Assembly (NCBI GenBank): GCA_051294905.1
Contig: CM119372.1
Coordinates: 27,158,001-27,222,000, forward strand
Reading direction: 5' to 3'
Source of the DNA: Botryllus schlosseri
Taxonomy: Eukaryota
DNA: 64,000 nt
The position numbers and the translations under genes are program-made. The notes under the pieces are model-generated. The model did not search any database and was not told the DNA's origin. It was given only the letters and a program-made list of their open reading frames with translations. Of the stretch, positions 36,801 to 64,000 are shown one piece after another. Numbering within the stretch: position 1 is the stretch's first letter; the number at the start of each line of letters is the position of its first letter.

Positions 36801-39800
36801 TGATCCTTTCAGGATGTTTCATAAATGAAATTAAAATGCTCCTAGGTCATATCGATAACGGCTGTTTTCGATGCTTGTCAAACCCCACGCAAATCATCGG
36901 AGTCTCCAGTGTGTGCGATGGATTCCTGGATTGCCACGATCTCAGTGACGAATGCCTCTGCCAGGCAGCTGAACGTCCCAAGATCTGCGAAAGAATGAAA
37001 TGGGGCATGGACTTCGTTCATTAATTTATATAGCGGTGACAAACAAGTAGGTTTTTTATTCAGGGATGCTGAATGCAACGGAAAATCGATCTTCACATTT
37101 AAGGTACACGAACGCAATCGATCAAAATTTGATGGATGGAAGTATGCGAAGATTTGTTTGCGATGAAAAGTCAGTAATCAGGAAATTCATATAAGCAATA
37201 TTGGTTTTCAATCAAGCGAAACGTCATTTTTGTGATGATTTATGTGACAATGCCCAATGACCTTAATTCAACTAAAAAATAAATAAAGTTCTGCTGAGTA
37301 GCGAGTCATTTCCGTGACATAAAATTTCGTTACACTGTTTTAAAGAGTGACTTTACTTATGTTTCTTGCAAGGAAACTGTGGGGTTTGGTCCGGGTCCAC
37401 AGTTATGGCTTAAGTTGGTTTAGCTTTGAGCTCAATATCGCACTATTGTTTCTGTTTACTATAACTGTAACGGTTGCCCGACATATGGGCATGCGACACA
37501 ATGGAAAACGACAGTTCAGCATGGAACACATCAGCATGCATCACTTCAGCATGTGACTGTATAACCCAAAAACTTACCCTAACCCGAAACATAGCCTAAC
37601 CCAGGGGTCGCCACCTCAAAACGGGTCGCGGGCCACTTTTCGAATTTCGTGCAGTCCGTGGACCGCAAAAATGTAATATGGAGACAAAATAGACCACACA
37701 CTCTCTAGCAGCCACGCTTTCAAAGCTTTCGTCAGTACAATGCTGTTCAATGAAATCTAAAGAAAAAGTTTTTTTTGAACAGCCCTAGTTCATGGACGAC
37801 GGGCGTAGTTACCACAAAGGAAGTAATAGTTTAATAAAGAAATACAAATACAACAATGGACATATCATGATCTTCAACGCTTTTCAGCGACTGCGGAATC
37901 GATATTAGGGTTACCGTGACACGGTACTAGCTGAAAGTCTTGTGGGGAATCCGTAATCCGTTCTGTAAGTGTCTTGGCAGTGTCTTGGTCATTGCACGTA
38001 AGGCACTCTGCCCATGCCCATTCATATCATCTGATTCTCCCTAGATGGCATGTTGTTGCCATCGCCGAAGCCATTGCATTTATTGAGGAATATAGTGATG
38101 TTGGTGGGCAATGGGCATACTTTGAAACAACTATATTTTAAAGCTGAAATAAATTTCAGCATCTCAAACTGCTTCACTTTTCGTTGTTCCAAAATCATAA
38201 ATCCTATCGCGGGCCGCAAAATATGACCTAGAGGGCCACATGCGGCCCGCGGGCCGCGTGTTGGTGACCCCTGGCCTAACCCAACCCAACCTAACCTAGC
38301 CTAACCTAACCTAAAGCCCAACCATAAATCCAACCCTAACCTACCCCTAACCCGTAATTTTACCCACATGCTCATGTGTCGCATGCCAAATTGTCGCATG
38401 CCGAAGTCTCGCATTCTCATATGTCCACGGACCAATTGTAACCCATAGCCAGTGTTGGGATCAAGTCACTACCTTCGAGTCACGAGTCATCTCGAGTCAT
38501 TGCACATTTTGACTCGAGTCAAGTCAAGTCAATCGATTTTCAAAGGTGACTCGAGTCAAGTCAAGTCAATCGTTTTTTGGAGGTGACTCGAGTCAAGTCG
38601 AGTCAAGTCAAGTCAAGTCACGAGTCAAGTCACGATTCAAGTCAAATTGAAATTTCGAAGTATGATTGATGATGCAAAGTCATTATATTTTGCTAACTAG
38701 ATTAAGGACAGATGAATTGGCCATTTATCTTGAATCAAATAACGAATATAAAGATAAATATACATGCGAAACGATGTTGCAGCACTCACGCAAACGTAGA
38801 GCTGCTAATAAAATATGCGAATAATTTTATAGTTACATCTACAGTCTGATTTTATCGGCCAATATTGAGTATCGAATACGAATCCTCGAGAAGTTGAAGA
38901 AATTGATGTGGTACAATACACCGCCCAAATACACATCCGTGAGAATATAAACGCGTAAACTATATTCGTTCGTTATATATCAAACAAGATGGTTGGTAAA
39001 GGTGAGCACATCCGCAATGTAAGCTCTGAGCCGTCTTAGAAACAAGGATACACGTTGCTATTAGATTAATCCAGGGTCGGCCAACCCGTGGCCCGCGGGC
39101 CACATGTGGCCCGCGAGAAGGTTTTGAGTGGCCCGCGAGGTAATTTCCGAAATTGGTAATGTTATAAAAATGAATTGCACGGATTGTGAACTTGCAATGC
39201 CAACCAAAAATTTGATTAGTCTGGAAGCAACACTTGAGATGTTATGACTAAAATATCAGTTACGACGCATTGGCATTTCCATGAGCCAGTCACACTTTGG
39301 TAGATCTTCGTACACTACAATAAAGCAGAATAATTTGCGATAAATATATCAAAAGTAAATATTTTCTACACGCTTCGCGCAACATTTTGTCACTCGATTT
39401 CTTGCTTTTAATATTGTTACCCCTTTGTGAAGATGAAAGAACGCTTAATGTATCAGATTGAGTCTAACTATATTCTCGATTACGAGACAAAGTGTCATGC
39501 GACCTAGCGTTTGCGCTCGCAGAAAGACCGTCGACTATGAAACCTAGGCACAAAACGATTGACGCATGTTGGTCGAAGCTTTCGAAATTGATATGTTCAG
39601 GCGCTGAATAGTCTAGTCCTGGCAAACTGAGCCCAGCGATATACTGCAGGCCTGCAATATAGTCAAGTGACTATTATTGAGCTATGGATGTCGAAAAAAT
39701 TTCGCGCTTCGCGCGGCTAGTGGCCCGCGCAATATTTCGTCGATCGAATGTGGCCCTTTGGCTGAAAAGGTTGACCAGCCCTGGATTAATCTATTGCTAC

Positions 39801-48800: not shown

Positions 48801-49941
48801 AATCCTCGATGTTCTTTGAATTTGTCTGTTTAATGGTATTAACGGCTAATCTGACATAACCTGTCATGTTAGAGTTTATATACACATTCATCGTTTGAGG
48901 AAGGTAAATGTGTAGCAGGAGGTGTCATTGCTAAATTTGTTGCCCGTTTAAACGCCACGACGGCCGCACCCCAAAACCCGAAATTGAGGAAGGGAGCTCG
49001 GAGGGGAATTATTTCGTAAATCAAGATAAAAAGGAGTATTTCAGAGATATTTCCTCAACTGACAATGTGTTATTTAAGTGATGAAAGTGATTCTATAAAA
49101 GTGGTTTACTCAATGAGGAGGGGGCGAAACGTTTTTTTAATCTTTCCCATGCACCCATTCCCAGGATGTGGATATGCAAAACGTTGTATGCGAAAAATGT
49201 GATTATTGGTTATTCTCTCATCAAATATTTAGGTATGCGACGGGTACAAGGATTGCTCATCTGGGTCTGATGAATGTCAGCCGGGATGCATTGAAAGTGC
49301 ATTTTCTGACGAGAAGTCGATGATTAAAAGCACAGGAGTCCTAGTTCTGGTGTGGACATTCAGTAAGTCACTTCGAAAAATCGACCGGGCTCGAGGTATT
49401 CGGACTGGGATAGGATTTCAATGAGGCTCGATATGTCGGGTTTACCAGGTTTGAATCGCTCGGGACAAAAATATTTTACAGATTCCAAATCTTACGTAGA
49501 TGATGTTCATGCTATACTCTGCTCTACTCTACTCTGCTTACTTTGCAGGTGTTACTGCCATTTTTGGATGTACATCAGTAGTTGGATCAAATTTACATGG
49601 CCTGTTGGAGAGCCCTAATGGAATTGTCACTTCATCGCATACCACCATCAACAGACTACTCATTATGAGTTTATCCGTTGCTGATTTGCTTGTTGGGGTA
49701 GGATACGTGTATACCTACTATATGCATTTACTGTACTAGTGTATCTGGTAAATACTCAGGTATACACGATTTCCATATGCATCAAGGCCGCGGTGTTCGA
49801 AGGCATATACTGCGACGTCGATGTCGAATGGAGAACAAGCACCGCCTGTTCAATGCTAGGCGCGCTATTAATCGTCGGATCAGAGCAATCCGTGTTTACA
49901 ATGGTTCTGATAACGATACATCGACTGCATGCTGTCATGAG
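12810..49941 (+). CDS. LDLa-repeat-containing rhodopsin-class GPCR (GRL101/RXFP/LGR-related 7TM, no LRRs seen); 18 exons, 3'-incomplete (ends after TM3)
   Basis: Exons read by hand: 12810-12867, 17555-17648, 19067-19209, 27519-27609, 29449-29591, 30033-30126, 30786-30934, 36039-36074, 36846-37004, 37064-37103, 41664-41707, 42574-42673, 44328-44408, 47181-47241, 48316-48408, 49233-49362, 49549-49697, 49760-49941. All junctions are AG/GT except one GC donor at 37005. Phases chain without a stop (1847 nt). Signal peptide MCWIYFLGLLMIITLPIMHA; LDLa motifs such as VCDGFLDCHDLSDECLC and VCDGYKDCSSGSDECQPGC; TM2 LSVADLLVGVY; TM3 WRTSTACSMLGALLIVGSEQSVFTMVLITIHRL. Confidence 0.88.
14383..15748 (-). 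mobile_element. Internally deleted hAT transposon containing the transposase remnant
   Basis: One end is GGACGGTACGGCAACCCTG (15748) with subterminal AATAAGGAC repeats. The degenerate opposite end near 14383 has the same AATAAGGAC motif. Confidence 0.6.
14683..15204 (-). pseudogene. Decayed hAT-superfamily transposase, N-terminal part
   Basis: Hand translation: MSKRKKVFRDGYERDF...AHCNIWNCDI...KHK...AAAAEG(frameshift)WAFHTVKHQQS...IFPYSNIANKFASARTKTTSIVTGVLAPYA...PFSVLVDASN. It has a degraded BED-like finger, ARTK and FSxxxDASN motifs, three stops and one frameshift. Confidence 0.8.
15748..15840. repeat. Short imperfect hairpin
   Basis: GAATCGAATCACCCAG...CTGGGTGATTCGATTC. Confidence 0.8.
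16432..17213. mobile_element. hAT MITE with 8-bp TSD TATATAGC
   Basis: TIR TAGGGTTCTGGTTTAAATC / GATTTAAACCAGAACCCTA. Confidence 0.92.
17555..19209 (+). CDS. GPCR LDLa cassette 1 (exons 17555-17648 and 19067-19209)
   Basis: GQNCSTEEFKCRDGLNCIPVVNFCDTVMDCS|DGSDEPAQIEKIDNSLYEVCRGRSEHRSGFCELPSDLEPDRQRLCRE, with canonical splice sites. Confidence 0.9.
17721..18401. mobile_element. MITE with a duplicated left end
   Basis: GGCGGAGATAATAAAGTT ... AACTTTATTATCTCCGCCCT; the left terminus is repeated at about 17721 and 17800. Confidence 0.8.
18536..18799. mobile_element. Small TIR element with CACTCTTAG termini, flanked by TA
   Basis: TA|CACTCTTAGCGAA ... TTCACTAAGAGTG|TA. Confidence 0.75.
20237..21923. 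mobile_element. hAT non-autonomous element with CTACTT repeats and 8-bp TSD CACACGGG
   Basis: TIR CAGAGGTGGTCA / TGACCACCTCTG. A partial second copy lies at about 26052-26320. Confidence 0.92.
20880..20950 (-). mobile_element. tRNA-like (SINE head) segment inside the hAT element
   Basis: The reverse strand reads TAGCGTAGTGG (A box) and GGTTCGATTCCC (B box), but the acceptor stem does not pair well. Confidence 0.6.
22599..25648. mobile_element. hAT element with GATTAC repeats and 8-bp TSD ATCTGCCC
   Basis: TIR CAGACATG / CATGTCTG with an exact TSD. Confidence 0.88.
24081..25063. mobile_element. hAT MITE with 8-bp TSD GTACGTAC
   Basis: TAGGGATGGTGTGAAC / GTTCACACAATCCCTG with an exact TSD. 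Confidence 0.92.
26616..27038. mobile_element. hAT-type MITE
   Basis: CAGGGGCACGCGAC...CGGCC start and GTTGCCCGCCCCTG end. Confidence 0.6.
27105..27304. mobile_element. MITE end with GGAGTC repeats
   Basis: (GGAGTC)n arrays ending CCGACTTCAAAGCCCTG. Confidence 0.65.
27519..29591 (+). CDS. GPCR LDLa cassette 2 (exons 27519-27609 and 29449-29591)
   Basis: MECSKEEFACRDGSMCIPVLHFCDTMKNCI|DESDEPRTYPMTENTLVNICRGRSEDQSGYCILPSDLEHDRLRLCRN. Paralogous to cassette 1, with the same 143-bp second exon. Confidence 0.9.
30033..30934 (+). CDS. GPCR LDLa cassette 3 (exons 30033-30126 and 30786-30934)
   Basis: STSCSPGEYACRDGSSCLHVSYFCDGFPSCK|DRSDEPRPLLDADSAGRLCMGRELSGTKPHPYCRLRDEEICDGLSICSN, with donors GTGAGC and GTAAGA. 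Confidence 0.9.
32474..32887. mobile_element. hAT-type MITE
   Basis: AGTGGTTTCCAAC ... GTTGAGAACCACTG termini. Confidence 0.7.
33465..35788. mobile_element. Fold-back element with diverged TIRs of about 600 bp and 8-bp TSD CGCGCATA
   Basis: About 33465-34075 is the reverse complement of about 35155-35788; termini GGGCTGTTCAAAAAA / TTTTTTGAACAGCCC. Confidence 0.88.
36039..37103 (+). CDS. GPCR exons 36039-36074, 36846-37004 and 37064-37103 (LDLa module plus linker)
   Basis: DVDECFCGDNSE|GHIDNGCFRCLSNPTQIIGVSSVCDGFLDCHDLSDECLCQAAERPKICERMKW|GMLNATENRSSHL. Confidence 0.8.
37602..38273. mobile_element. hAT MITE with 8-bp TSD GCCTAACC, inserted in a CCTAA-repeat element (about 37470-38435)
   Basis: TIR CAGGGGTCGCCA / TGGTGACCCCTG with an exact TSD. 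Confidence 0.9.
38450..40160. mobile_element. hAT element with GAGTCAAGTC repeats and 8-bp TSD CCCATAGC
   Basis: TIR CAGTGTTGGGAT / ATCCCAACACTG. Confidence 0.93.
39072..39783. mobile_element. Nested hAT MITE with 8-bp TSD GATTAATC
   Basis: CAGGGTCGGCCAACC / GGTTGACCAGCCCTG with an exact TSD. Confidence 0.92.
40310..40985. mobile_element. hAT MITE with 8-bp TSD CTTTAGTT; shorter relative at about 47826-48118
   Basis: TIR CAGTGGTTCTCAA / TTGAGAACCACTG. Confidence 0.92.
43158..43996. mobile_element. hAT-type MITE
   Basis: GGGTGGGCAAACTGCGGCTC ... CCTGCCCACCCCTA. Confidence 0.65.
44727..44752. repeat. (AT)n microsatellite
   Basis: About 13 AT units. Confidence 0.9.
48316..49941 (+). CDS. GPCR juxtamembrane LDLa module and TM1-TM3 exons (48316-48408, 49233-49362, 49549-49697, 49760-49941)
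   Basis: FHCDDEKVISEDS|VCDGYKDCSSGSDEC...GVLVLVWTF|SVTAIFGC...INRLLIMSLSVADLLVG|VYTISICIK...WRTSTACSMLG...SEQSVFTMVLITIHRLHAVM. The pattern is typical of the RXFP/GRL101 7TM domain. Confidence 0.92.
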
Positions 49942-50538
49942 GTTTGAATAGACACAGTGGTGTCGCCACATAAAGGCGGCAATGTGGTGTGAAATACTAT
50001 TGCGTTCTCAGCCGTTGGAAATTGGGCAATCCAATTAGTTAGTCATCTGCTAATTGGATCCATACAAAATATAGTAAGATATGCTATGACTAGAATACCA
50101 CGTGAATTCTACTGCGCAGCCACTATTTTCACTATTGATGACAGTTACCTCCGATAGTATAATCGGTAAGTTTCCCAATCCGACTCTGACCCTGTTTTAT
50201 TGAAGGACATTTGTAATCCCACCCGACTTCTAGTCGCGATCGCTGGAATTAGTATGATTTTCGTTCACAAAACTGAATATGCACAAAGTAAATTGAAGGA
50301 ATTTTATCGTTGTTTTCGTTGGAAGGAAATGAAACGTCAATGCTGCAAGAATATGGTTAGCAATGCATGGATCCTCAGCCCCATTCTGGGTCAGTCCAAA
50401 ATCTGCTAAGTCCCACCCAGGTGCACCATGGCGTCGGATTTATGCTGCACACAACTAGGTTGTTTAAGGAATTATTTTCATACGGGGTTGAAGTCATGAT
50501 GCGATATTGAACATGCAATAATGACTATTAGCCTATAT

Positions 50539-50910
50539 CAGAGGCGGCCAACCAGTGGCCCGCGAGGTAATTCACGAAATTAGTCATATCAAAAAAATAC
50601 CCGGATAATTCATTGTGAAGTTGCAAGGCCAACCAAAGTTTGGTAGCCTGACCGCAAAATTTGGGATGTTGATGACTAAGATATCTGTTCCGATACGTTT
50701 TCGTAGCAAGGGGCCAGCCACATTTTTCGTAGATCTTTCTATATGACCGCAGAGTAGAATATTTCTTGGAATATTTGTTTGACCTGATATTTTTCTTAGC
50801 ACATGTCGCGATTTATCGTCACTCGAAGTCTTGATTTTAGTATTACCTAGTAATACCTACAATTCACAGAATTGAGTCGAGCTATATTCACAATTATGAG
50901 ACAACACGTC
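50539..50910 (+). mobile_element. Left part of a MITE of the 39072-39783 family, interrupted at 50910
   Basis: Colinear with 39072-39495 (GTGGCCCGCGAGGTAATT...GTAGATCTT...GTCACTCGA...ATTGAGTC...GAGACAA), after which homology ends abruptly. Confidence 0.85.
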
Positions 50911-51963
50911 AGTAGTAGGATAAAGCAATTTTGTTGCCGGCCAATCCCAGAAGGCCACGTCGCCTTAATTGCCACGCCTACATTGCCACATCATCCGCCC
51001 ATTGCCACATCATCTGCTACGTCATCAGCCGCGGGCATTGCCACATCCAATGTATATTTGTATTAGTGAAATGCGTCTTGATAATATTAGTCAGATTTTC
51101 TATTATGTGTATTTAGGACTATGTATTTAAATTCCTATTCAGATTATACATAAATGCGAAAACTATGATGTATATGCAAGGCTATATTCTCCGGATAATA
51201 TTATTAATATCAAAATTCTACACATCATCACTAATTACTTAATATAAAATGCGATTTTGAGCGCTGCGACTTGATAATATGAATCTCTACGCTTCTGATG
51301 CATGATTTTTTGCGATAAGGACCTAGGTAACATTCAGAGTCTGCAACGATTGTTTGGATATACATTATAGCAATACCCCACTAAACTATAGGCGGTTATA
51401 TTACTCTATTGGTCAGAGATAACTCATCCGTCCATATTTTTAAACTTGATTTTATGTATACAAGTTACGGTCTCTGCAGCCTCCACATTTTACGACTTAT
51501 TTTTATTAGACGCAGGCAAGCGGTTCTCCAGTTCGTAGCTACGGAAACAAATCACTCGCATGTGCGCGTTCCGAATAGTCTTGTAGAATTTTCTAAAGTC
51601 GTAACAGCTTAGCAGCATATACGCGAATCCCCAGGCGAAAATAATCGAACGAACTATAGCCGCAGGCGTGCGATTCGCAGGGCTTTAATTATATAAACAC
51701 TTTCGATACCTGTACGCGAACCCCAGCGTTATAACGATTGCTATAATTAAACGAACACCTTCGCGGCAGGTACGCGATCCCCGACGTTATAATGATAGGG
51801 ACAAATTAGCCGCATGAAAGCGAGTCTAATGAATATAACGACAGACAACAAGTTAGTTGAAAAGTAAAACTAATCGTGACCGACGCAAGACGGTGTGAAA
51901 CAGCGCTTTCGCTCGATTCTTTCTTGACATATAATATACTGAGCATATAAAAAGCTGGCAAAA

Positions 51964-52410
51964 CCTATACTTGAGTACTCCGAAATGTACAAGTACTTTA
52001 CCTTTACACGACGTTTTTGTAAAATGAATACTAATTTCAATGAAAAATAAAAAAATATGTACTCAAGTAGGTTTTTGTCTACACGCACCAACTACTCAAG
52101 TGTTTATGACACAGGAATGATTCATGAATTATAGCGCAAGCAGGCCAAATCTATACTTGAGTACTCCAAAATGTAAAAGTACTTCCACCTATACTTGAGT
52201 AGTCCGAAATGTACAAGTACTTTACCTTTACACGACGTTTTGTAAAATGAATACTAATTTCAATGAAAAATAAAAAATTATGTACTCAAGTAGGTTTTTG
52301 TCTACACGCACCAACTACTCAAGTGTTTATGACACAGGAATGATTCATTAAGTATAGCGCAAGCAGGCCAAATCTATACTTGAGTACTCCAAAATGTACA
52401 AGTACTTCGC
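51964..52410 (+). repeat. Tandem duplication of about 224 bp built on a CTATACTTGAGTACTCC motif
   Basis: Units start at about 51964 and 52188. Further local duplications at about 52460/52641 and 52885/53085. Confidence 0.85.
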
Positions 52411-54299
52411 TATGTACTCTCTCCACGTAAAAAGTGACTAGGTTTTAGACTACTTTATCGATTTTCGATGTTGCGCAAATACCGCAAACTTTGCTTGCTT
52501 TCAGAGCTGGCAACTAAATGCAAGACAGACTTAAGTTTGGATGCGGCATATTTAGGTTTTTAAAAATTATTCATACCCATGTTTCGAAATATTGTTAACT
52601 AACTTATGTTTTCGATATAAGATAAGCGTGAAGTGTACAAATTTCGATGTTGTGCAAATACCACAAACTTTGCTTGCTTTCAGAGCCGACAACTAAATGC
52701 AAGACAGACTTCACGCAAAAGTTGATATTCTGAAAATTTTGGCTAGTTAATAGTTTAAAAACTTATACTTCAGCACTACGAAATGTACAAGTACTTTACC
52801 TATACACGACGTTTTTGTAAAATGAATACTAATTTTAAGAAAAAATAAAAAAAAGAGCGAAAAACTACCTTTTATCACGCTAATCCCCACCGTGAAACTT
52901 GGTACGCAGTTGTAGGACAATATGAAAATACACCATACCAAATTTCGTCAGACATTTCATGATGTAACACCTTTAAAACCAACGCAGTTCTATACCGACT
53001 TTTGGCCTAATCTGTTTTCCGTAACGCAGCACGTACGTATACATAGACAACTTTAAAACGGAATTACCATGTTAATAATCGACTCCCCCACCTTGAAACT
53101 CGGTACGCAGTTGTAAGACATTATGACAATGTACCATATTAAATTTTGTTACGCATTTCATGATTAAACAACTTTAAAACTAACGCAGTTCTATACCGAC
53201 ATTTGCGTGAATCTGTTTTGCGGGAGCGTAGCACATACCTATACTTCGGATTTTGTATAGTATATACTAATTTTACATTGCGGGGTATTCAGTAAACTTT
53301 AATCCAGTGATCCTCCATCTATTTTCAATCACGCTCCTCTTATTAGTCTAGGCTTCCAACCCCACATCCAGTACGTATTTACCTACTAAGTACCTATTTC
53401 CGACTAAGTAAAACGTCAGTATTCCAGGTATTTTCTGCTTAATTCTGAAACTATAATGGATTTGAAGCAGTACAATATCATAAACACTTGAGAATATTTG
53501 CTGCATGTAGGTAAAAAACGTACTTGAGTACTCGGAAGAAGTCGATACTTACTTGTTTAGCCGCTCGGACATCATCACTTATTGTACTTTACTAGAAATT
53601 TACTGCTGATAAATGAGTGTAATACCACGAAGTGAGACTTCGAAACTATATCGTCAGTTCTCCGGGACCAAATATCGTGTTAAGTGTTAAGTTGTTGTAT
53701 TATGTAGCTATAGTAATTGGTACACGTAAGCTCAGGATCGAACCAACTTGTGTTAACTTGCGTTATTATGTACCTAGTAATTGATGCGAGTAATCCCGCA
53801 ACTGATGCTGTTCAATGCCTTTACTGCGTTCTTACCAAGCACCTAGACAGCCCCAAGCAATATTTTTAGATTCAAATATAGCGTATCGAGTACTTTTTCT
53901 CAACTGTAATAAAAACTTTTAGACTCCGGATTTTGTGTAGTAGGCTATATACTAATTTACAATACCGCATTTGTAATTCGCGCAAGTACAGGAATATCAT
54001 AGTTCTTGTAAGAAAGTTGTCTGCGCACAATATATGTTAATCATAAGTCCTACAAATTCATGATTTCGTCCTAGTTTAAGTTTTAGAAAATATTATACCG
54101 ACATCGCGACATCTTTCAAAAACAAAACCATGATCAAGGATTGAAAGATAATTTTTGCTATTTTTCATTGACATAAGTCATTCTGGAACGCGAAAACGCA
54201 TTGTACGATATAGATGAAACTTAAGCAAATCCTAGGATCCTCATTTCCAAAGTAGCTTAGATCTCGAAATAAGCTTTGACTCGCTATTCTCCTCAAGCC

Positions 54300-54945
54300 A
54301 TGGAATCATCACGAGTATCAGCACCTTCGATCACTGAAGAAAAGGATGAAATTATATCCGAAACATATTCCTTGACCAGGAATTTTATCATGTACGAACT
54401 CGACGGGTCATGCGTTAAGGTAAATACGAAAGCAGAGAGAACCTTACGTCAAGTTGGAGATGAAATGCTCGAGCGACATCGAACAGTCCTAAACGCAGTT
54501 TCCAAACGTCTCCGCTATAGTGATGTTGAAGTCAATGAAAAATATAAAGAATATTTACCCGATGAGCGGCTGTTCCTGATGCTAGCTGATGAAATTTTCA
54601 AAGATACCAAAGAAAATTGGGGGAGGATTGTCTGCCTTTTTGTGCTCGGTAGCATTCTTGCTCGCAAAAACGAGGATGAACATCACGGGGAGCATATAGA
54701 AGCTATCATACAGACAATTGGGAATTACATTGCTAGCAGAAGACTAAAGTGGATAGTGCGAAATGGAGGATGGGTAGGTGATTTACATGCTTCGCTTAGG
54801 ATTTATAAATTATCTTCTATTTTTGTTACAGGATGGCTTTGTAGGATTTTTTGATAATGCCGCTTTCGACTACAATAAAGTTTGGAAGGGACTCGTGTTT
54901 GTTGGAATCGGACTGACATCTATAGCAATGGCATTATCAAGATAA
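54300..54945 (+). CDS. Bcl-2 family apoptosis regulator, MCL1/A1-like, 195 aa, 2 exons (54300-54773, 54832-54945)
   Basis: BH3-like LRQVGDEM, BH1 NWGRIVCLFVLG, BH2 WIVRNGGW|DGFVGFF split by a 58-bp GT-AG intron at the conserved GGW^D position, and a C-terminal membrane anchor VWKGLVFVGIGLTSIAMALSR. AATAAA at 54984. Confidence 0.93.
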
Positions 54946-54983
54946 TGGATGTTCGCATGTTTTATCTCATGTAATATTTTAAG

Positions 54984-54989
54984 AATAAA
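54984..54989 (+). terminator. Probable polyadenylation signal of the Bcl-2-like gene
   Basis: AATAAA about 40 nt after the stop codon, mirrored at 62180-62185. Confidence 0.55.
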
Positions 54990-55948
54990 ATTCTTCATCG
55001 TTAATCGCATCCATTTTACTGTAGGATGTATACAGTTTCAGTATGAATGATGGGTCCTATGGTGCTTGACGAAAGAAGTTGGTCATCTATTCTATATTCC
55101 GAAATAATCAAGTTTGTGATTTTTTAGCAGCACCTAGCCTCATATAAACTTTAATAGAATCACTTATAACTCATCAGTTTACTCAAGTAAATCTAATTTG
55201 ATACTCGAGCACTGAACCTTAATTTTCCAGCAGTATGATAGACACCCTCCGATGGTACTCAACATCGTGCAATTCTGCTCGAATACAAGTACAAGTAGAG
55301 ATTTCAAAGTAAGTAAGTAACTGGTTATGTTTGTAGACTATAACTCCACTTCTATCGTTCAGAAAGGAAAGGACGTAGTTTATTTTTGTCCTTGATGTTT
55401 GAGATGTTGAGCAGAGAAGTACATGTACTTCTTTAAAGTACTCAAGTAGGCTAAAATGCCAAGCTACCTTGTAACTAAGGCTACTATTTGTCATAATAAC
55501 TACTATGAGCGCACAATTAGCTTGTTCAAAATCTCCAAATTCCAGGGATTCACTGATTGAATTGATATGTATTGAATTAAAATAATGCTGCCTACGAAAT
55601 TTGCTAGATGTGAACGCATTTTTATCAAAATGTTCAAATTTCACTGACAACCTCTTGAAATTGTTGCAGTGTCTAAAACAGAGATCTCAAACATGCGGCT
55701 CGCGAACCGTCAATTTAATAAACCGTCGAACAATCAGGGTTGGAGACAAGATTTTTCCGTTCTATGTCATGACAATACCAACAAACACCGTGTAAAGTTT
55801 CAAGGTTGTCATTCGATGATTAAGGAATTAAGAAAACTACTTCTACTAAACTTCTGGACTTTTACTAAACTTATACACTGCATCTGATCAAGTATAGATA
55901 GAAAAGCAAAGCTAATATAAAATTCCGCGAAGTACCGATTCTGTAACT

Positions 55949-57318
55949 ACTGTAAGTAGGCAAACCTTAGCTGAGTATACTCCGAAAAAACAGGAGTAAT
56001 TCGTTACTCACCAAATAAATGGATATCATTCAATATGAGTGGCGTTAGGATATCCGTCAAATACTTTCCGTTATTCTATAGAAGTTGCGTTTCTGACTAC
56101 TTAAAAGTTGCTAGAGCTCATGCTATTTTATCGTCGTATCGATGTTCGTTTTGAAAAGTAGCATGCTCAATGGTTCATGTTCACATTATTCAGTTAAATT
56201 AGGTTTTGCGCAAAGAAAAAGGACTGTAAGTAGGCAAACCTTAGCTGAGTATACTCCGAAAAAACAGGAGTAATTCGTTACTCACCAAATAAATGGATAT
56301 CATTCAATATGAGTGGCGTTAGGATATCCGTCAAATACTTTCCGTTATTCTATAGAAGTTGCGTTTCTGACTACTTAAAAGTTGCTAGAGCTCATGCTAT
56401 TTTATCGTCGTATCGATGTTCGTTTTGAAAAGTAGCATGCTCAATGGTTCATGTTCACATTATTCAGTTAAATTAGGTTTTGCGCAAAGAAAAAGGACTG
56501 TAAGTAGGCAAACCTTAGCTGAGTATACTCCGAAAAAACAGGAGTAATTCGTTACTCACCAAATAAATGGATATCATTCAATATGAGTGGCGTTAGGATA
56601 TCCGTCAAATACTTTCCGTTATTCTATAGAAGTTGCGTTTCTGACTACTTAAAAGTTGCTAGAGCTCATGCTATTTTATCGTCGTATCGATGTTCGTTTT
56701 GAAAAGTAGCATGCTCAATGGTTCATGTTCACATTATTCAGTTAAATTAGGTTTTGCGCAAAGAAAAAGGACTGTAAGTAGGCAAACCTTAGCTGAGTAT
56801 ACTCCGAAAAAACAGGAGTAATTCGTTACTCACCAAATAAATGGATATCATTCAATATGAGTGGCGTTAGGATATCCGTCAAATACTTTCCGTTATTCTA
56901 TAGAAGTTGCGTTTCTGACTACTTAAAAGTTGCTAGAGCTCATGTTATTTTATCGTCGTATCGATGTTCGTTTTGAAAAGTAGCATGCTCAATGGTTCAT
57001 GTTCACATTGTTCAGTTAAATTAGGTTTTGCGCAAAGAAAAAGGACTGTAAGTAGGCAAACCTTAGCTGAGTATACTCCGAAAAAAACAGGAGTAATTCG
57101 TTACTCACCAAATAAATGGATATCATTCAATATGAGTGGCGTTAGGATATCCGTCAAATACTTTCCGTTATTCTATAGAAGTTGCGTTTCTGACTACTTA
57201 AAAGTTGCTAGAGCTCATGCTATTTTATCGTCGTATCGATGTTCGTTTTGAAAAGTAGCATGCTCAATGGTTCATGTTCACATTGTTCAGTTAAATTAGG
57301 TTTTGCGCAAAGAAAAAG
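55949..57318 (+). repeat. Tandem array, 5 x 274 bp (left arm)
   Basis: Units starting ACTGTAAGTAGGCAAACCTTAGC at 55949, 56223, 56497, 56771 and 57045; near-identical. Confidence 0.97.
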
Positions 57319-59850
57319 AAAATTCACGCAAAAGTCGCTATTGCTCCGTGATGATTTTGATGTTGTTCCATACCGATTTGGGAGGTAGTACACCTAATTT
57401 CGTAAAGTACACAGAAAACTACTTCTACTAAATTCCTACACTTCTAAACTTCTACACTGAATCTTGTAAAGTATATAGAAAAGGAAAGCCAACGAATAAT
57501 TCATGAAGTTCCGATAGGCTATATTTGAGGTAATGATTCCCGTGCGAATGAAAAGTAAGTAGAGAAGCTTAGCATATCAACGATATCGTTGCCAGTCATT
57601 GCGTCGATTCGCTGCTTGAAATCCTCAAGATCGATTGATGTTTCGAGGTTTCGCGGTTTCGCTTTGCTGTCATCCGTACGAGCAGAATGTCTGGATTAGG
57701 AACAACTACGCCAGGACCATTAATGCTTTCGATACAGTGCAATATGAATAGCGCTACGTTGATCAATTCAAATTCAACAATGGCTCCCGCGCACGATTAT
57801 GTAGCCGGATTTTCGTTGAATATTGACGACACCCACAAACCTAAAGATCTCTTTCCCCTTCACATCTATGATAGAGTTATCACTCCAATGACTACGAATA
57901 ACTTGAGATTCCGTCGGATTAATATCCGAATCAAATAATACCAGAGTATCTTTTCCGACTTTTAAAACCCGCACTGTCGCGTTCGGCCTATGTCGCAACA
58001 CCACAATATGCGGCCATACAAAACGATGAATAGTAGCTTTTTGTAGTACCATATCTGCGAGATATTTTCAGTTGGGTGTAATTTCACGCTGCTCACCAAT
58101 TTACAGCTCACAGTGCAACTGAATTGGCGTTCATACTAATTCTACATAATTTTTGCATGTCAGGCAATTACATCAGCAGTAAAACGCCGGCGGCTACTCA
58201 TTTGAAGCTTGTTAGTATCTGAGATAAATGGCGCTCAAGCGTAGCATGGAATCGCTAATACACCATACCAAATTTCGTCAGACATGTCATGATGTAACAC
58301 CTTTAAAAACCAACGCAGTTCTATACAGACTTTTGATGCAATAGCGATTACACAGTAAGTAACTAACTGAATATGTTTGTAGACTATATCTCCACTTCTA
58401 CCATTCAGAGATGTTGAGCACATAAGTATATGTACTTCTTCAAAGTACTCAAGTAGCTTTTCGTAGGATATAGATGACACTGACAACACTCACCAAGACC
58501 ACTGGTCCACTGAAAAAAGTACATTGTAGCAGTAAAGTCCTACTAAAGTACAAGAAGTAATGATTTCCCAGTTAGTTAAAAAGTAAGTATTGCAGGTATA
58601 GTTTGATCGAAAAAGCGAAAAACTCTGAAATAGAAGTAGATGCAGTGTAAATAGGTAACACTTCATTGAGTATAGCGCAAGCAGGCCAAACCTATACTGG
58701 AGTACTCCAAAATGTACAAGTACTTCGCTAATGTAGTAAGCAGGCCGATATGAAGATATTCGTTGAGCTGAATGAACATAAAAATACTCCCGTGCCCCGA
58801 AATTTATGTATAATCTGAATTGTATTTTCTGGAGGGAAAGTATTATCTAGCGTATAATGAATGTTATTTATTTTTTGGAATATTAGTCCTAAATACACAT
58901 AATAGAATATCTAAGGGAAGTATCGAAGTTTCATAATAAACATGAAAATACCTGGTGTCGTTGAGTTGAATAAACATAAAAAAATAAACATAAAAAAATT
59001 TTTGCCTGACATGCAAAAATTATGTAGAATTAGTATGAACGCCAATTCAGTTGCACTGTGAGCTGTAAATTGGTGAGCAGCGTGAAATTACACCCAACTG
59101 AAAATATCTCGCAGATATGGTACTACAAAAAGCTACTATTCATCGTTTTGTATGGCCGCATATTGTGGTGTTGCGACATAGGCCGAACGCGACAGTGCGG
59201 GTTTTAAAAGTCGGAAAAGATACTCTGGTATTATTTGATTCGGATATTAATCCGACGGAATCTCAAGTTATTCGTAGTCATTGGAGTGATAACTCTATCA
59301 TAGATGTGAAGGGGAAAGAGATCTTTAGGTTTGTGGGTGTCGTCAATATTCAACGAAAATCCGGCTACATAATCGTGCGCGGGAGCCATTGTTGAATTTG
59401 AATTGATCAACGTAGCGCTATTCATATTGCACTGTATCGAAAGCATTAATGGTCCTGGCGTAGTTGTTCCTAATCCAGACATTCTGCTCGTACGGATGAC
59501 AGCAAAGCGAAACCGCGAAACCTCGAAACATCAATCGATCTTGAGGATTTCAAGCAGCGAATCGACGCAATGACTGGCAACGATATCGTTGATATGCTAA
59601 GCTTCTCTACTTACTTTTCATTCGCACGGGAATCATTACCTCAAATATAGCCTATCGGAACTTCATGAATTATTCGTTGGCTTTCCTTTTCTATATACTT
59701 TACAAGATTCAGTGTAGAAGTTTAGAAGTGTAGGAATTTAGTAGAAGTAGTTTTCTGTGTACTTTACGAAATTAGGTGTACTACCTCCCAAATCGGTATG
59801 GAACAACATCAAAATCATCACGGAGCAATAGCGACTTTTGCGTGAATTTT

Positions 59851-61220
59851 CTTTTTCTTTGCGCAAAACCTAATTTAACTGAACAATGTGAACATGAACC
59901 ATTGAGCATGCTACTTTTCAAAACGAACATCGATACGACGATAAAATAGCATGAGCTCTAGCAACTTTTAAGTAGTCAGAAACGCAACTTCTATAGAATA
60001 ACGGAAAGTATTTGACGGATATCCTAACGCCACTCATATTGAATGATATCCATTTATTTGGTGAGTAACGAATTACTCCTGTTTTTTTCGGAGTATACTC
60101 AGCTAAGGTTTGCCTACTTACAGTCCTTTTTCTTTGCGCAAAACCTAATTTAACTGAACAATGTGAACATGAACCATTGAGCATGCTACTTTTCAAAACG
60201 AACATCGATACGACGATAAAATAACATGAGCTCTAGCAACTTTTAAGTAGTCAGAAACGCAACTTCTATAGAATAACGGAAAGTATTTGACGGATATCCT
60301 AACGCCACTCATATTGAATGATATCCATTTATTTGGTGAGTAACGAATTACTCCTGTTTTTTCGGAGTATACTCAGCTAAGGTTTGCCTACTTACAGTCC
60401 TTTTTCTTTGCGCAAAACCTAATTTAACTGAATAATGTGAACATGAACCATTGAGCATGCTACTTTTCAAAACGAACATCGATACGACGATAAAATAGCA
60501 TGAGCTCTAGCAACTTTTAAGTAGTCAGAAACGCAACTTCTATAGAATAACGGAAAGTATTTGACGGATATCCTAACGCCACTCATATTGAATGATATCC
60601 ATTTATTTGGTGAGTAACGAATTACTCCTGTTTTTTCGGAGTATACTCAGCTAAGGTTTGCCTACTTACAGTCCTTTTTCTTTGCGCAAAACCTAATTTA
60701 ACTGAATAATGTGAACATGAACCATTGAGCATGCTACTTTTCAAAACGAACATCGATACGACGATAAAATAGCATGAGCTCTAGCAACTTTTAAGTAGTC
60801 AGAAACGCAACTTCTATAGAATAACGGAAAGTATTTGACGGATATCCTAACGCCACTCATATTGAATGATATCCATTTATTTGGTGAGTAACGAATTACT
60901 CCTGTTTTTTCGGAGTATACTCAGCTAAGGTTTGCCTACTTACAGTCCTTTTTCTTTGCGCAAAACCTAATTTAACTGAATAATGTGAACATGAACCATT
61001 GAGCATGCTACTTTTCAAAACGAACATCGATACGACGATAAAATAGCATGAGCTCTAGCAACTTTTAAGTAGTCAGAAACGCAACTTCTACAGAATAACG
61101 GAAAGTATTTGACGGATATCCTAACGCCACTCATATTGAATGATATCCATTTATTTGGTGAGTAACGAATTACTCCTGTTTTTTCGGAGTATACTCAGCT
61201 AAGGTTTGCCTACTTACAGT
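59851..61220 (-). repeat. Tandem array, 5 x 274 bp (right arm, inverted)
   Basis: Reverse complement of 55949-57318, including unit-specific variants. Confidence 0.97.
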
Positions 61221-62223
61221 AGTTACAGAATCGGTACTTCGCGGAATTTTATATTAGCTTTGCTTTTCTATCTATACTTGATCAGATGCAGTGTATAAGT
61301 TTAGTAAAAGTCCAGAAGTTTAGTAGAAGTAGTTTTCTTAATTCCTTAATCATCGAATGACAACCTTGAAACTTTACACGGTGTTTGTTGGTATTGTCAT
61401 GACATAGAACGGAAAAATCTTGTCTCCAACCCTGATTGTTCGACGGTTTATTAAATTGACGGTTCGCGAGCCGCATGTTTGAGATCTCTGTTTTAGACAC
61501 TGCAACAATTTCAAGAGGTTGTCAGTGAAATTTGAACATTTTGATAAAAATGCGTTCACATCTAGCAAATTTCGTAGGCAGCATTATTTTAATTCAATAC
61601 ATATCAATTCAATCAGTGAATCCCTGGAATTTGGAGATTTTGAACAAGCTAATTGTGCGCTCATAGTAGTTATTATGACAAATAGTAGCCTTAGTTACAA
61701 GGTAGCTTGGCATTTTAGCCTACTTGAGTACTTTAAAGAAGTACATGTACTTCTCTGCTCAACATCTCAAACATCAAGGACAAAAATAAACTACGTCCTT
61801 TCCTTTCTGAACGATAGAAGTGGAGTTATAGTCTACAAACATAACCAGTTACTTACTTACTTTGAAATCTCTACTTGTACTTGTATTCGAGCAGAATTGC
61901 ACGATGTTGAGTACCATCGGAGGGTGTCTATCATACTGCTGGAAAATTAAGGTTCAGTGCTCGAGTATCAAATTAGATTTACTTGAGTAAACTGATGAGT
62001 TATAAGTGATTCTATTAAAGTTTATATGAGGCTAGGTGCTGCTAAAAAATCACAAACTTGATTATTTCGGAATATAGAATAGATGACCAACTTCTTTCGT
62101 CAAGCACCATAGGACCCATCATTCATACTGAAACTGTATACATCCTACAGTAAAATGGATGCGATTAACGATGAAGAATTTTATTCTTAAAATATTACAT
62201 GAGATAAAACATGCGAACATCCA

Positions 62224-62869
62224 TTATCTTGATAATGCCATTGCTATAGATGTCAGTCCGATTCCAACAAACACGAGTCCCTTCCAAACTTTATTGTAGT
62301 CGAAAGCGGCATTATCAAAAAATCCTACAAAGCCATCCTGTAACAAAAATAGAAGATAATTTATAAATCCTAAGCGAAGCATGTAAATCACCTACCCATC
62401 CTCCATTTCGCACTATCCACTTTAGTCTTCTGCTAGCAATGTAATTCCCAATTGTCTGTATGATAGCTTCTATATGCTCCCCGTGATGTTCATCCTCGTT
62501 TTTGCGAGCAAGAATGCTACCGAGCACAAAAAGGCAGACAATCCTCCCCCAATTTTCTTTGGTATCTTTGAAAATTTCATCAGCTAGCATCAGGAACAGC
62601 CGCTCATCGGGTAAATATTCTTTATATTTTTCATTGACTTCAACATCACTATAGCGGAGACGTTTGGAAACTGCGTTTAGGACTGTTCGATGTCGCTCGA
62701 GCATTTCATCTCCAACTTGACGTAAGGTTCTCTCTGCTTTCGTATTTACCTTAACGCATGACCCGTCGAGTTCGTACATGATAAAATTCCTGGTCAAGGA
62801 ATATGTTTCGGATATAATTTCATCCTTTTCTTCAGTGATCGAAGGTGCTGATACTCGTGATGATTCCAT
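62224..62869 (-). CDS. Second, inverted copy of the MCL1-like Bcl-2 family gene (exons 62869-62396, 62337-62224)
   Basis: Mirror image of 54300-54945 (coordinate sum 117169). The ORF track gives an identical translation for both copies. Confidence 0.93.
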
Positions 62870-64000
62870 GGCTTGAGGAGAATAGCGAGTCAAAGCTTAT
62901 TTCGAGATCTAAGCTACTTTGGAAATGAGGATCCTAGGATTTGCTTAAGTTTCATCTATATCGTACAATGCGTTTTCGCGTTCCAGAATGACTTATGTCA
63001 ATGAAAAATAGCAAAAATTATCTTTCAATCCTTGATCATGGTTTTGTTTTTGAAAGATGTCGCGATGTCGGTATAATATTTTCTAAAACTTAAACTAGGA
63101 CGAAATCATGAATTTGTAGGACTTATGATTAACATATATTGTGCGCAGACAACTTTCTTACAAGAACTATGATATTCCTGTACTTGCGCGAATTACAAAT
63201 GCGGTATTGTAAATTAGTATATAGCCTACTACACAAAATCCGGAGTCTGAAAGTTTTTATTACAGTTGAGAAAAAGTACTCGATACGCTATATTTGAATC
63301 TAAAAATATTGCTTGGGGCTGTCTAGGTGCTTGGTAAGAACGCAGTAAAGGCATTGAACAGCATCAGTTGCGGGATTACTCGCATCAATTACTAGGTACA
63401 TAATAACGCAAGTTAACACAAGTTGGTTCGATCCTGAGCTTACGTGTACCAATTACTATAGCTACATAATACAACAACTTAACACTTGTAAAACACGATA
63501 TTTGGTCCCGGAGAACTGACGATATAGTTTCGAAGTCTCACTTCGTGGTATTACACTCATTTATCAGCAGTAAATTTCTAGTAAAGTACAATAAGTGATG
63601 ATGTCCGAGCGGCTAAACAAGTAAGTATCGACTTCTTCCGAGTACTCAAGTACGTTTTTTACCTACATGCAGCAAATATTCTCAAGTGTTTATGATATTG
63701 TACTGCTTCAAATCCATTATAGTTTCAGAATTAAGCAGAAAATACCTGGAATACTGACGTTTTACTTAGTCGGAAATAGGTACTTAGTAGGTAAATACGT
63801 ACTGGATGTGGGGTTGGAAGCCTAGACTAATAAGAGGAGCGTGATTGAAAATAGATGGAGGATCACTGGATTAAAGTTTACTGAATACCCCGCAATGTAA
63901 AATTAGTATATACTATACAAAATCCGAAGTATAGGTATGTGCTACGCTCCCGCAAAACAGATTCACGCAAATGTCGGTATAGAACTGCGTTAGTTTTAAA

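Follow-up and report, generated by a model that had tools for sequence, protein, structure and literature searches.

Mavericks, also called Polintons, are regarded as viruses with a second life as transposons, and both their replication and the roles of their accessory genes are largely untested; the elements were reportedly treated by Kapitonov and Jurka in 2006. Among protein-primed DNA viruses, copy-back or inverted-dimer defective genomes are a feature of incomplete adenovirus particles, and undersized helper-dependent vectors multimerise to packaging size. The Drosophila foldbacks FB and Galileo, which belong to the MuDR or P superfamilies, have target-site duplications (TSDs) of 7-9 bp, and those of Mutator/MuDR are about 9 bp. 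Animals usually have between a few and a few tens of Bcl-2-family genes. In the excerpts available from the published descriptions, intact vertebrate Mavericks have (AGT)2//(ACT)2 or (AG)3//(CT)3 ends, 6-bp TSDs, terminal inverted repeats (TIRs) of 46-1,447 bp, a size of 12.7-24.6 kb and accessory regions at both ends (PMC8097293; Barreat and Katzourakis 2021); Polinton TSDs are 6 bp, as are those of IS3EU/GingerRoot, which end TA..TA or TG..CA (PMC10045372); adintovirus homologues of Bcl2 and IAP are recorded in one sentence (PMC8502044; Starrett et al. 2021); and giant planarian Gypsy-like retrotransposons contain a BCL-2 domain (PMC6431247; Arkhipova and Yushenova 2019). Here we describe an element that begins in a 64,000-nucleotide stretch of Botryllus schlosseri DNA (contig CM119372.1, positions 27,158,001 to 27,222,000, forward strand; the window). 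It is a giant palindrome with one intact Bcl-2-family gene in each arm, which we file as a non-autonomous foldback variant acting like a Polinton derivative, not as a proven member of that group.

The window (G000:C2:27158001-27222000) is part of a 495-Mb, 219-contig animal assembly and sits well inside a 40.6-Mb contig, away from the contig ends; the next 9.9 kb (L009) are numbered here as continued coordinates 64001-73900. The first letters of the element, AGTAGTAG, stand at 50911 (longer reading of the start, AGTAGTAGGATAAAG), and its right end, ...CTACTACT, at 71685, 7.7 kb past the window (longer reading, CCTACTACT), where direct reading finds CACGTC, the same hexamer that precedes the left end. 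The element was inserted by a reaction that duplicates 6 bp of its target. From 50911 to 71685 (G000:C2:27208911-27229685) it measures 20,775 bp, a length due to a 5.4-kb long interspersed nuclear element (LINE) nested in the right arm; when this LINE and one copy of its TSD are subtracted, 15,356 bp remain. Within the window the inverted repeat consists of 53682-58167 / 59002-63487 (4486 nt) and, offset by a 4-nt indel, 53173-53681 / 63492-64000 (509 nt), both at 100% identity. With the extra 9.9 kb included, self-BLAST pairs 52986-58167 with 64187-59002 (99.88%, 5186 nt) and, in the outer arms, 50906-52998 with 71690-69594 (99.48%, 2097 nt), so that the TIRs of the element amount to 7.3-8.1 kb. 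Sister copies on C9 and C11, 99.4-99.7% identical, have an arm that reaches 58986 and a loop of only 64-68 bp; about 819 bp have been lost at the centre from the right arm of the window copy. There is no N in 50000-73900. The subterminal motifs of the foldbacks include TTTGTTRCCGKCCAA and ATTGCCAC repeats, and the four copies of ATTGCCACRYC near the left end (see table) are possibly protein-binding sites.

Much of this had been anticipated by a first-pass annotation of the window, made from its letters alone. It had recognised the start of new DNA at 50911 and a palindrome with an intact Bcl-2-family gene in each arm, and direct reading of the start and alignment of the arms, whose gene copies are identical, agree with it. 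It had also proposed a non-autonomous element of about 15.3 kb made almost entirely of two long inverted arms, with AGTAGT/ACTACT ends, a 6-bp TSD of CACGTC, dispersed genomic copies and no polymerase, integrase or capsid gene; self-BLAST, the list of open reading frames (ORFs), the Pfam scan and terminus matches on many contigs bear this out, the ends and TSD being exactly as foreseen. For the right end the predicted sequence and following CACGTC are present, but at 71685/71686 and not near 66260, because of the 5,407-bp LINE nested in the right arm.

The element belongs to a dispersed family. Its terminal 390 bp gave 107 listed genome matches, many of them as +/- pairs, and a motif taken from three termini (AGTAGT, 13 variable bases and TTTGTTRCCGKCCAA) gave 69 forward and 73 reverse matches with at most 1 mismatch, mostly also as +/- pairs. 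Because the reversed-pattern control of this motif search (21 specified bases) likewise returned 55+52 matches, far above chance, the evidence for a family rests on pairing and TSDs and not on raw counts; the control pattern, for all its 107 matches, is absent from all 45 loci read. Across the 42 listed +/- end-pairs the median distance is 16,152 bp, with 29 pairs falling between 13 and 20 kb. All ten members in which both ends were read have AGTAGT.../...ACTACT ends and perfect 6-bp TSDs of unrelated sequence, namely CACGTC, TGTGTT, GATAGG, GTCAGT, ATTTTG, TACGTG, CTACGC, CATGTC, CACGAG and GGTGTG. Exchange between subfamilies is suggested by close relatives, whose terminal modules, 25-600 bp long, can differ. 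Each of the 12 elements that were read is a foldback, and its arms, 4-12 kb long, are 99.5-99.98% identical.

These 12 foldbacks contain no long ORFs beyond the Bcl-2-like gene and nested transposons, and no rve integrase of their own; a single rve match was obtained, in a BEL/Pao retrotransposon nested in the C3 copy, and the long ORF of that copy was set aside as part of this retrotransposon. Among ORFs of at least 70 aa in the window element, Pfam matches only Bcl-2 and the LINE, with no capsid, packaging ATPase or protease. A Mutator-like ORF in the C14 copy (L025:8528-10000, +; PF20700, 4.9e-51) was rejected as the family transposase: copies 99-100% identical to it at G000:C8:17148241, C4:5589748 and C10:2612813 are distant from any listed foldback, and it is therefore a nested insertion. 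This Mutator-like transposase occurs in four intact 592-aa copies, 99-100% identical, and represents a separate, apparently young MULE family.

By its sequence, the gene carried in each arm is a Bcl-2-family member with MCL1 as its closest solved relative. The ORF at 54273-54854 matches PF00452 along the full profile (positions 1-100 of 100; E 9.9e-22; 77.8 bits, the curated threshold being 31.4), and the BH1 (NWGR) and BH2 (GGW) motifs and an LRxVGD stretch are present. In a PDB search MCL1 comes first (E 5.7e-11) and BAX also matches, at 4e-9; the first Atlas matches, at 0.95, are Bcl-2-domain clusters, among which a pro-death Bok-named cluster ties at 0.95. On these three counts the sequence fails to tell a death-blocking role, as named in the first-pass annotation, from a death-promoting one. 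The predicted product has 195 aa and is encoded identically by the mirror copy at 62869-62224. The two-exon model draws on a GT directly after TGG in 6/6 subfamily copies, on an exon 2 frame that is the same or changed by one residue in the C12, C11 and C5 copies, and on the block 54814-55039, which is 90-96% conserved between subfamilies. A full HMMER search gave 389 protein matches, the best full-length one being Styela clava bcl-2-like protein 2 at 46% identity; a word-index protein search with the Bcl-2-like ORF gave no match, and IMG/VR contigs held no relative of the protein. Downstream of the left gene, a 39-nt stretch at 55362-55400 lies under hundreds of RNA reads in which it is flanked by a T-run and, on its other side, by unrelated sequence; it was rejected as expression of the locus, because the reads match it only briefly and stem from an abundant polyadenylated transcript of another origin.

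The gene had first been taken for a one-off captured cargo, and is instead a family-wide component present in hundreds of copies. At least 150 copies are listed at 73-100% identity, of 423 first-look candidates, and 108 of these 150 are arranged, on 18 contigs, as 54 convergent +/- pairs whose members are less than 20 kb apart; in-frame stops occur in 13 of the 150. A genome search with the Styela clava relative found more such pairs among 576 candidates, of which 150 were scored; since none of the scored copies exceeds 52% identity to the Styela protein, there is no obvious closer host parent. The genome's best match to that protein, at C14:19038685, is unpaired. The ratio of nonsynonymous to synonymous change (dN/dS), estimated from 6 copies in 15 pairs that are not independent of one another, is 0.38-0.55 in 13/15 pairs, with dS up to 0.22, and the excess of synonymous change reaches p<0.05 in 11/15. 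This pattern indicates that the gene has been kept open under moderate purifying selection while the family diversified. In the C9 sister element the left-arm copy (L018:4078-4663) is frameshifted near codon 101, while its counterpart in the right arm is intact.

Arms that belong to one element also change together. Three regions were compared in seven or five arms of four sister elements; at 13 sites a variant is common to both arms of one element only, and 1 site groups arms of different elements. Such arm-shared variants imply that a mutation in one arm reaches the other, and show arms that exchange sequence and evolve in concert, by chromosomal gene conversion or by one arm templating the other during replication.

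The genome also harbours autonomous Polintons, which share the AGTAGT end motif and are close to the foldbacks in size. An ORF of 1129 aa (L041) has eukaryotic Atlas clusters with 96-100% PF03175 as its nearest matches (score 0.96), is adjoined by an A32-like ATPase (a weak match, E 0.0045), and has 41 long genome matches at 75-100% identity, 36 of them without stops. The DNA to the right of this ORF ends ...TATATAACTACT, beside an unrelated gag-like ORF. The 34-nt Polinton end gave 22+19 genome matches (control 0), with -/+ pairs 11-16.6 kb apart, and two of the end-pairs enclose polymerase matches (C10, 15,272 bp; C15, 14,817 bp). Further end-pairs of about 13.6 kb have the exact 34-nt C13/C10-type polymerase-Polinton terminus and no listed polymerase match (see table). 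The best PF03175 profile match in the genome at E<=10 (C5:11748519) was rejected as a Polinton polymerase, as it falls in an intronless DNA polymerase delta-like ORF. That ORF (L040:3079-6306, -; G000:C5:11747079-11750306) runs uninterrupted for 1075 aa and matches the catalytic subunit of DNA polymerase delta over its full length (DNA_pol_B, E 4e-157; PDB 6s1m, E 0). This POLD1-like gene is either a retrogene or a host gene of unusual compactness.

Our best reading, which we consider probable while well short of established, is that the foldbacks are helper-dependent, size-constrained, inverted-dimer derivatives of Polintons/Mavericks that keep a survival gene and correct their arms through a hairpin. 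Each element would be an inverted dimer of two near-identical ~7-8-kb arms joined tail to tail, so that both ends would have the same sequence, AGTAGT followed by conserved subterminal motifs. Copying may be performed by the protein-primed polymerase, and integration by the retrovirus-like (rve) integrase, of the resident autonomous Polintons, which are numerous and have AGTAGT ends. The palindrome could have arisen during strand-displacement replication, when one genome end was copied back or dimerised tail to tail; the displaced strand, fully self-complementary, would fold into a hairpin, and this would account for the arm-to-arm correction. A family median of ~16 kb, near the 14.8-15.3 kb of the polymerase-bearing Polintons, would point to a size (packaging) constraint. 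If it acts as viral Bcl-2 homologues do, the MCL1-like protein would sustain the cell during replication of the element or its helper. In a more specific form of this reading, unlikely as a whole in our judgement, the palindromes would be integrated copy-back satellites of Polinton/adintovirus-like viruses: tail-to-tail dimers of one viral genome end, held at capsid size by filler repeats, corrected through hairpins, replicated, integrated and perhaps packaged by a helper. Each would retain a functional MCL1-like gene, to the benefit of the replicating cell or of the survival of the germline or stem cells that carry it.

Several results weigh against a helper-dependent Polinton derivative with a working survival gene. 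No autonomous element with the subterminal sequence of the foldback family was found, and the Polinton link proposed in the first-pass annotation agrees in ends and TSD but goes no further than AGTAGT at the single readable end of a polymerase-bearing Polinton (L045). There is no BLASTN/TBLASTX match between the 12 foldbacks and the resident polymerase locus; by eye, 0/41 polymerase matches lie within 20 kb of a listed Bcl-2 match or inside a listed family end-pair; and a PF03175 profile search of the genome gave no match at E<=0.001. The sole lead comes from C5, where a terminus of the family type (C5:1696496, +) precedes a polymerase-like ORF (C5:1703193-1706291, +) by 6.7 kb; this terminus has no partner end within 3 mismatches and may belong to an autonomous relative or a chimera. 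The foldback TIRs of 7-8 kb make up nearly the whole element, compared with 46-1,447 bp in the vertebrate Mavericks of the excerpted source (PMC8097293). The centres of the palindromes are partly unresolved in the assembly, with 100-N runs in 3/12 foldbacks. As for the gene, dN/dS is 0.72 and 1.05 in two pairs, and values of 0.4-0.5 mean merely moderate constraint. Two subfamilies retain only 82 codons and four elements are gene-less, and both kinds still multiplied; the gene is old in the family and constrained, yet dispensable for movement. RNA depth over the coding region is at most 2.7 per 117-bp bin in two runs and zero in a third, and no splice joint is present among the RNA reads of these three runs (same species label) for the predicted 58-nt intron, whose splicing the C-terminal membrane anchor requires. 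Ordinary chromosomal gene conversion could explain the concert of the arms equally well.

The main rival, which we regard as possible though clearly not probable, holds that these are foldbacks of another, perhaps undescribed, cut-and-paste superfamily, with a 6-bp TSD and AG..CT ends, no Polinton replication and a Bcl-2 passenger acquired early. The lack of subterminal sequence in common with the readable Polinton end and arms that far exceed known Maverick TIRs favour it, as do the absence of any Polinton gene or remnant from the 12 foldbacks read and the existence of foldbacks in other superfamilies (Drosophila FB, Galileo). On the other hand, the only transposase inside a family member, the Mutator-like ORF of C14, is nested, and sizes cluster at that of Polintons, whereas non-autonomous cut-and-paste elements usually shrink; moreover, AGTAGT/ACTACT with a 6-bp TSD exactly matches the Maverick mark given in the available text of PMC8097293, and the other known 6-bp-TSD group, in the portion of PMC10045372 at hand, ends TA..TA. 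The hundreds of mostly intact copies, the purifying selection and the arm-to-arm concert, reminiscent of sex-chromosome palindromes, might also be expected of ordinary host genes that segmental duplication, and not transposition, had multiplied in the form of chromosomal palindromes and that were kept for their benefit to the host. This we consider very improbable: it is contradicted by 10/10 elements with sharp identical ends and perfect, unrelated 6-bp TSDs at unrelated sites on many contigs, while the window copy interrupts an apparent intron and gene-less and gene-truncated relatives have the same ends. Finally, the 100% arm identity within the window and the 100-N runs at the centres of three related palindromes could raise the suspicion of an assembly artefact, i.e. 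a palindrome made by a foldback chimeric read or a misjoin, to which we attach a negligible probability. The element is free of N and situated 27 Mb into a contig of 40.6 Mb, and its outer junctions have unique flanks and the same 6-bp TSD. The LINE, which has a 12-bp TSD of its own, sets the two arms apart, as do an 819-bp deletion at the centre, a 4-nt indel and point differences, and nearly identical copies on C9, C11 and C12 differ in their nested insertions. The 100-N runs, gaps or withheld stretches of the assembly, stand at the inner arm edge, at C1:40592353-40592452, C5:26384264-26384363 and C16:11767691-11767790.

The insert in the right arm is identified as a non-LTR (long terminal repeat-free) retrotransposon by an endonuclease and a reverse transcriptase in ORF2, a simple-repeat 3' tail (TAA-repeat) and a TSD of 12 bp, the arm sequence 52987-98 being present on both of its sides. 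On its minus strand it has an intact ORF1 of 468 aa and an ORF2 of 1242 aa in which Pfam finds Exo_endo_phos_2 (6.4e-19), RVT_1 (1.9e-37) and RNase_H (2.7e-13). The arms differ more outside the LINE point, with 6 substitutions in 1.9 kb (50911-52998), than inside it, with 1 in 2.6 kb and 0 in 0.83 kb (52999-58167), which would fit with a block to arm-to-arm conversion by the 5.4-kb heterology.

Outside the element, the surroundings proposed earlier were found only in part. The element had been thought to interrupt a miniature inverted-repeat transposable element (MITE), and about the first 170 bp of the supposed half-MITE in the left flank do resemble the MITE at 39072-39783 (75.7% over 144 nt and 82.9% over 41 nt), but the rest is unlike it; the 2.2 kb past the element contain neither a MITE match adjoining the junction nor GCCTATAT, so the predicted remainder of the MITE with its TSD did not materialise. 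The predicted flanking exons of a G-protein-coupled receptor fared no better, as the single exon-sized frames gave no Pfam match and no seven-transmembrane (7TM) domain. Exon-like frames do flank the element (window 49233-49951; L009:7852-8040), with membrane-helix-like stretches visible by eye, and a flanking frame has an LDLa-like cysteine motif as a sub-threshold Pfam match (E 0.054). The insertion site is probably an intron of a host receptor gene, but none of the exons, taken singly, has a Pfam 7TM match.

Table. Coordinates of the features of the foldback element and of related loci (window numbering, continued past 64000).
Feature	Position	Strand	Basis or remark
TSD CACGTC, left copy	50905-50910	.	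both junctions read directly; right copy 71686-71691 (L009:7686-7691)
Left arm, 8,076 bp	50911-58986	+	self-BLAST; extent to 58986 from sister copies C9, C11
Terminal motif, family signature: AGTAGT + 13 variable bases + TTTGTTGCCGGCCAA	50911-50944	+	genome pattern search
ATTGCCACRYC, four subterminal copies, putative protein-binding sites	50968-51047	+	4 matches in window against 0.11 expected; 0/100 shuffles reached 4
223-bp tandem repeat, 2 copies	51963-52408	.	Tandem Repeats Finder
Bcl-2/MCL1-like gene, left copy, exon 1, 158 codons (ATG to BH2 tryptophan)	54300-54773	+	PF00452
Predicted 58-nt intron, GT..AG, phase 0, directly after BH2 tryptophan codon	54774-54831	+	conserved GT, acceptor and frame
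Predicted exon 2, 37 codons and stop: DGF.. BH2 continuation, hydrophobic C-terminal anchor	54832-54945	+	conserved frame
274-bp tandem repeat, 5 copies, non-coding arm filler	55949-57318	.	Tandem Repeats Finder
Joint of arms	58987-59001	.	self-comparison and sister copies; right arm without mirror of 58168-58986
Right arm, inner part (mirror of 58167-53173)	59002-64000, on to 64186	-	self-BLAST
274-bp tandem repeat, 5 copies, right arm	59851-61220	.	Tandem Repeats Finder
Right gene copy, predicted exon 2, identical to left	62224-62337	-	predicted intron 62338-62395
Right gene copy, exon 1, identical to left	62396-62869	-	sequence comparison
Nested non-LTR retrotransposon (LINE), 5,407 bp	64187-69593 (L009:187-5593)	ORFs on -	TSD, tail, domains
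Right arm, outer part	69594-71685	-	self-BLAST
End-pairs of ~13.6 kb with polymerase-Polinton terminus	C2:10093703-10107540, C4:6363128-6376710, C4:20120004-20133697, C17:2192578-2206224, C24:277026-290688		34-nt end search

If our best reading is true, gene-poor inverted dimers that keep the ends and size of Polintons, and whose arms evolve in concert, would preserve in nature the replication chemistry of these elements, with its strand displacement, its repair through a hairpin or panhandle and the limit set by packaging. The family also shows how a single mobile lineage can raise a cell-death regulator to hundreds of copies, mostly intact, in the genome of an animal. If the satellite form were true as well, a virus-satellite system would have seeded an animal genome with several hundred functional cell-death regulators. 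This raises the questions of whether the gene serves the element, its helper or the host, whether it is silenced, and whether it affects the survival of germline or stem cells. Within the literature outside subscription journals and supplements, and as far as the partial texts of these sources go, foldback Polinton derivatives and transposon-borne Bcl-2 expansions do not appear; the adintovirus Bcl2 sentence comes closest.

Among known systems, the inverted dimers of the adenovirus type resemble the foldbacks in having one genome end twice, inverted, with identical origins, in their dependence on a helper and in a size near that of the helper; they are episomal products of the laboratory or of infection, whereas the foldbacks are integrated in the germline, flanked by TSDs and diversified into subfamilies. 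FB and Galileo share the very long inverted arms, the internal tandem repeats and the mostly non-autonomous state, and differ from the foldbacks here, which have a 6-bp TSD and AGTAGT ends. The 6-bp TSD likewise sets the family apart from Mutator/Foldback (MuDR) elements, the one Mutator-like ORF (C14) being nested. Unlike a Maverick/Polinton, the window element is without polymerase, integrase, ATPase, protease and capsid genes; it has the AGTAGT/ACTACT ends, the perfect 6-bp TSD and the TIRs that mark Mavericks in the excerpted description, and both its 15.4 kb without the LINE and the family median of 16.2 kb lie within the 12.7-24.6 kb given there (PMC8097293). IS3EU/GingerRoot differs in its ends, TA..TA or TG..CA in the text at hand and not AG..CT (PMC10045372). 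The giant planarian Gypsy-like elements are, as far as the available part of their description goes, another case of a mobile element bearing a Bcl-2-family sequence, as a polyprotein-embedded domain of an LTR retrotransposon, whereas the foldbacks are DNA elements with a separate two-exon gene (PMC6431247). There are also the adintoviruses, in which, by the one sentence concerned, an element of the Polinton/adintovirus lineage has an accessory Bcl-2 homologue (PMC8502044); there a complete virus-like genome carries a single accessory copy, while here the gene stands twice in a gene-poor palindrome that is itself repeated in hundreds of copies.

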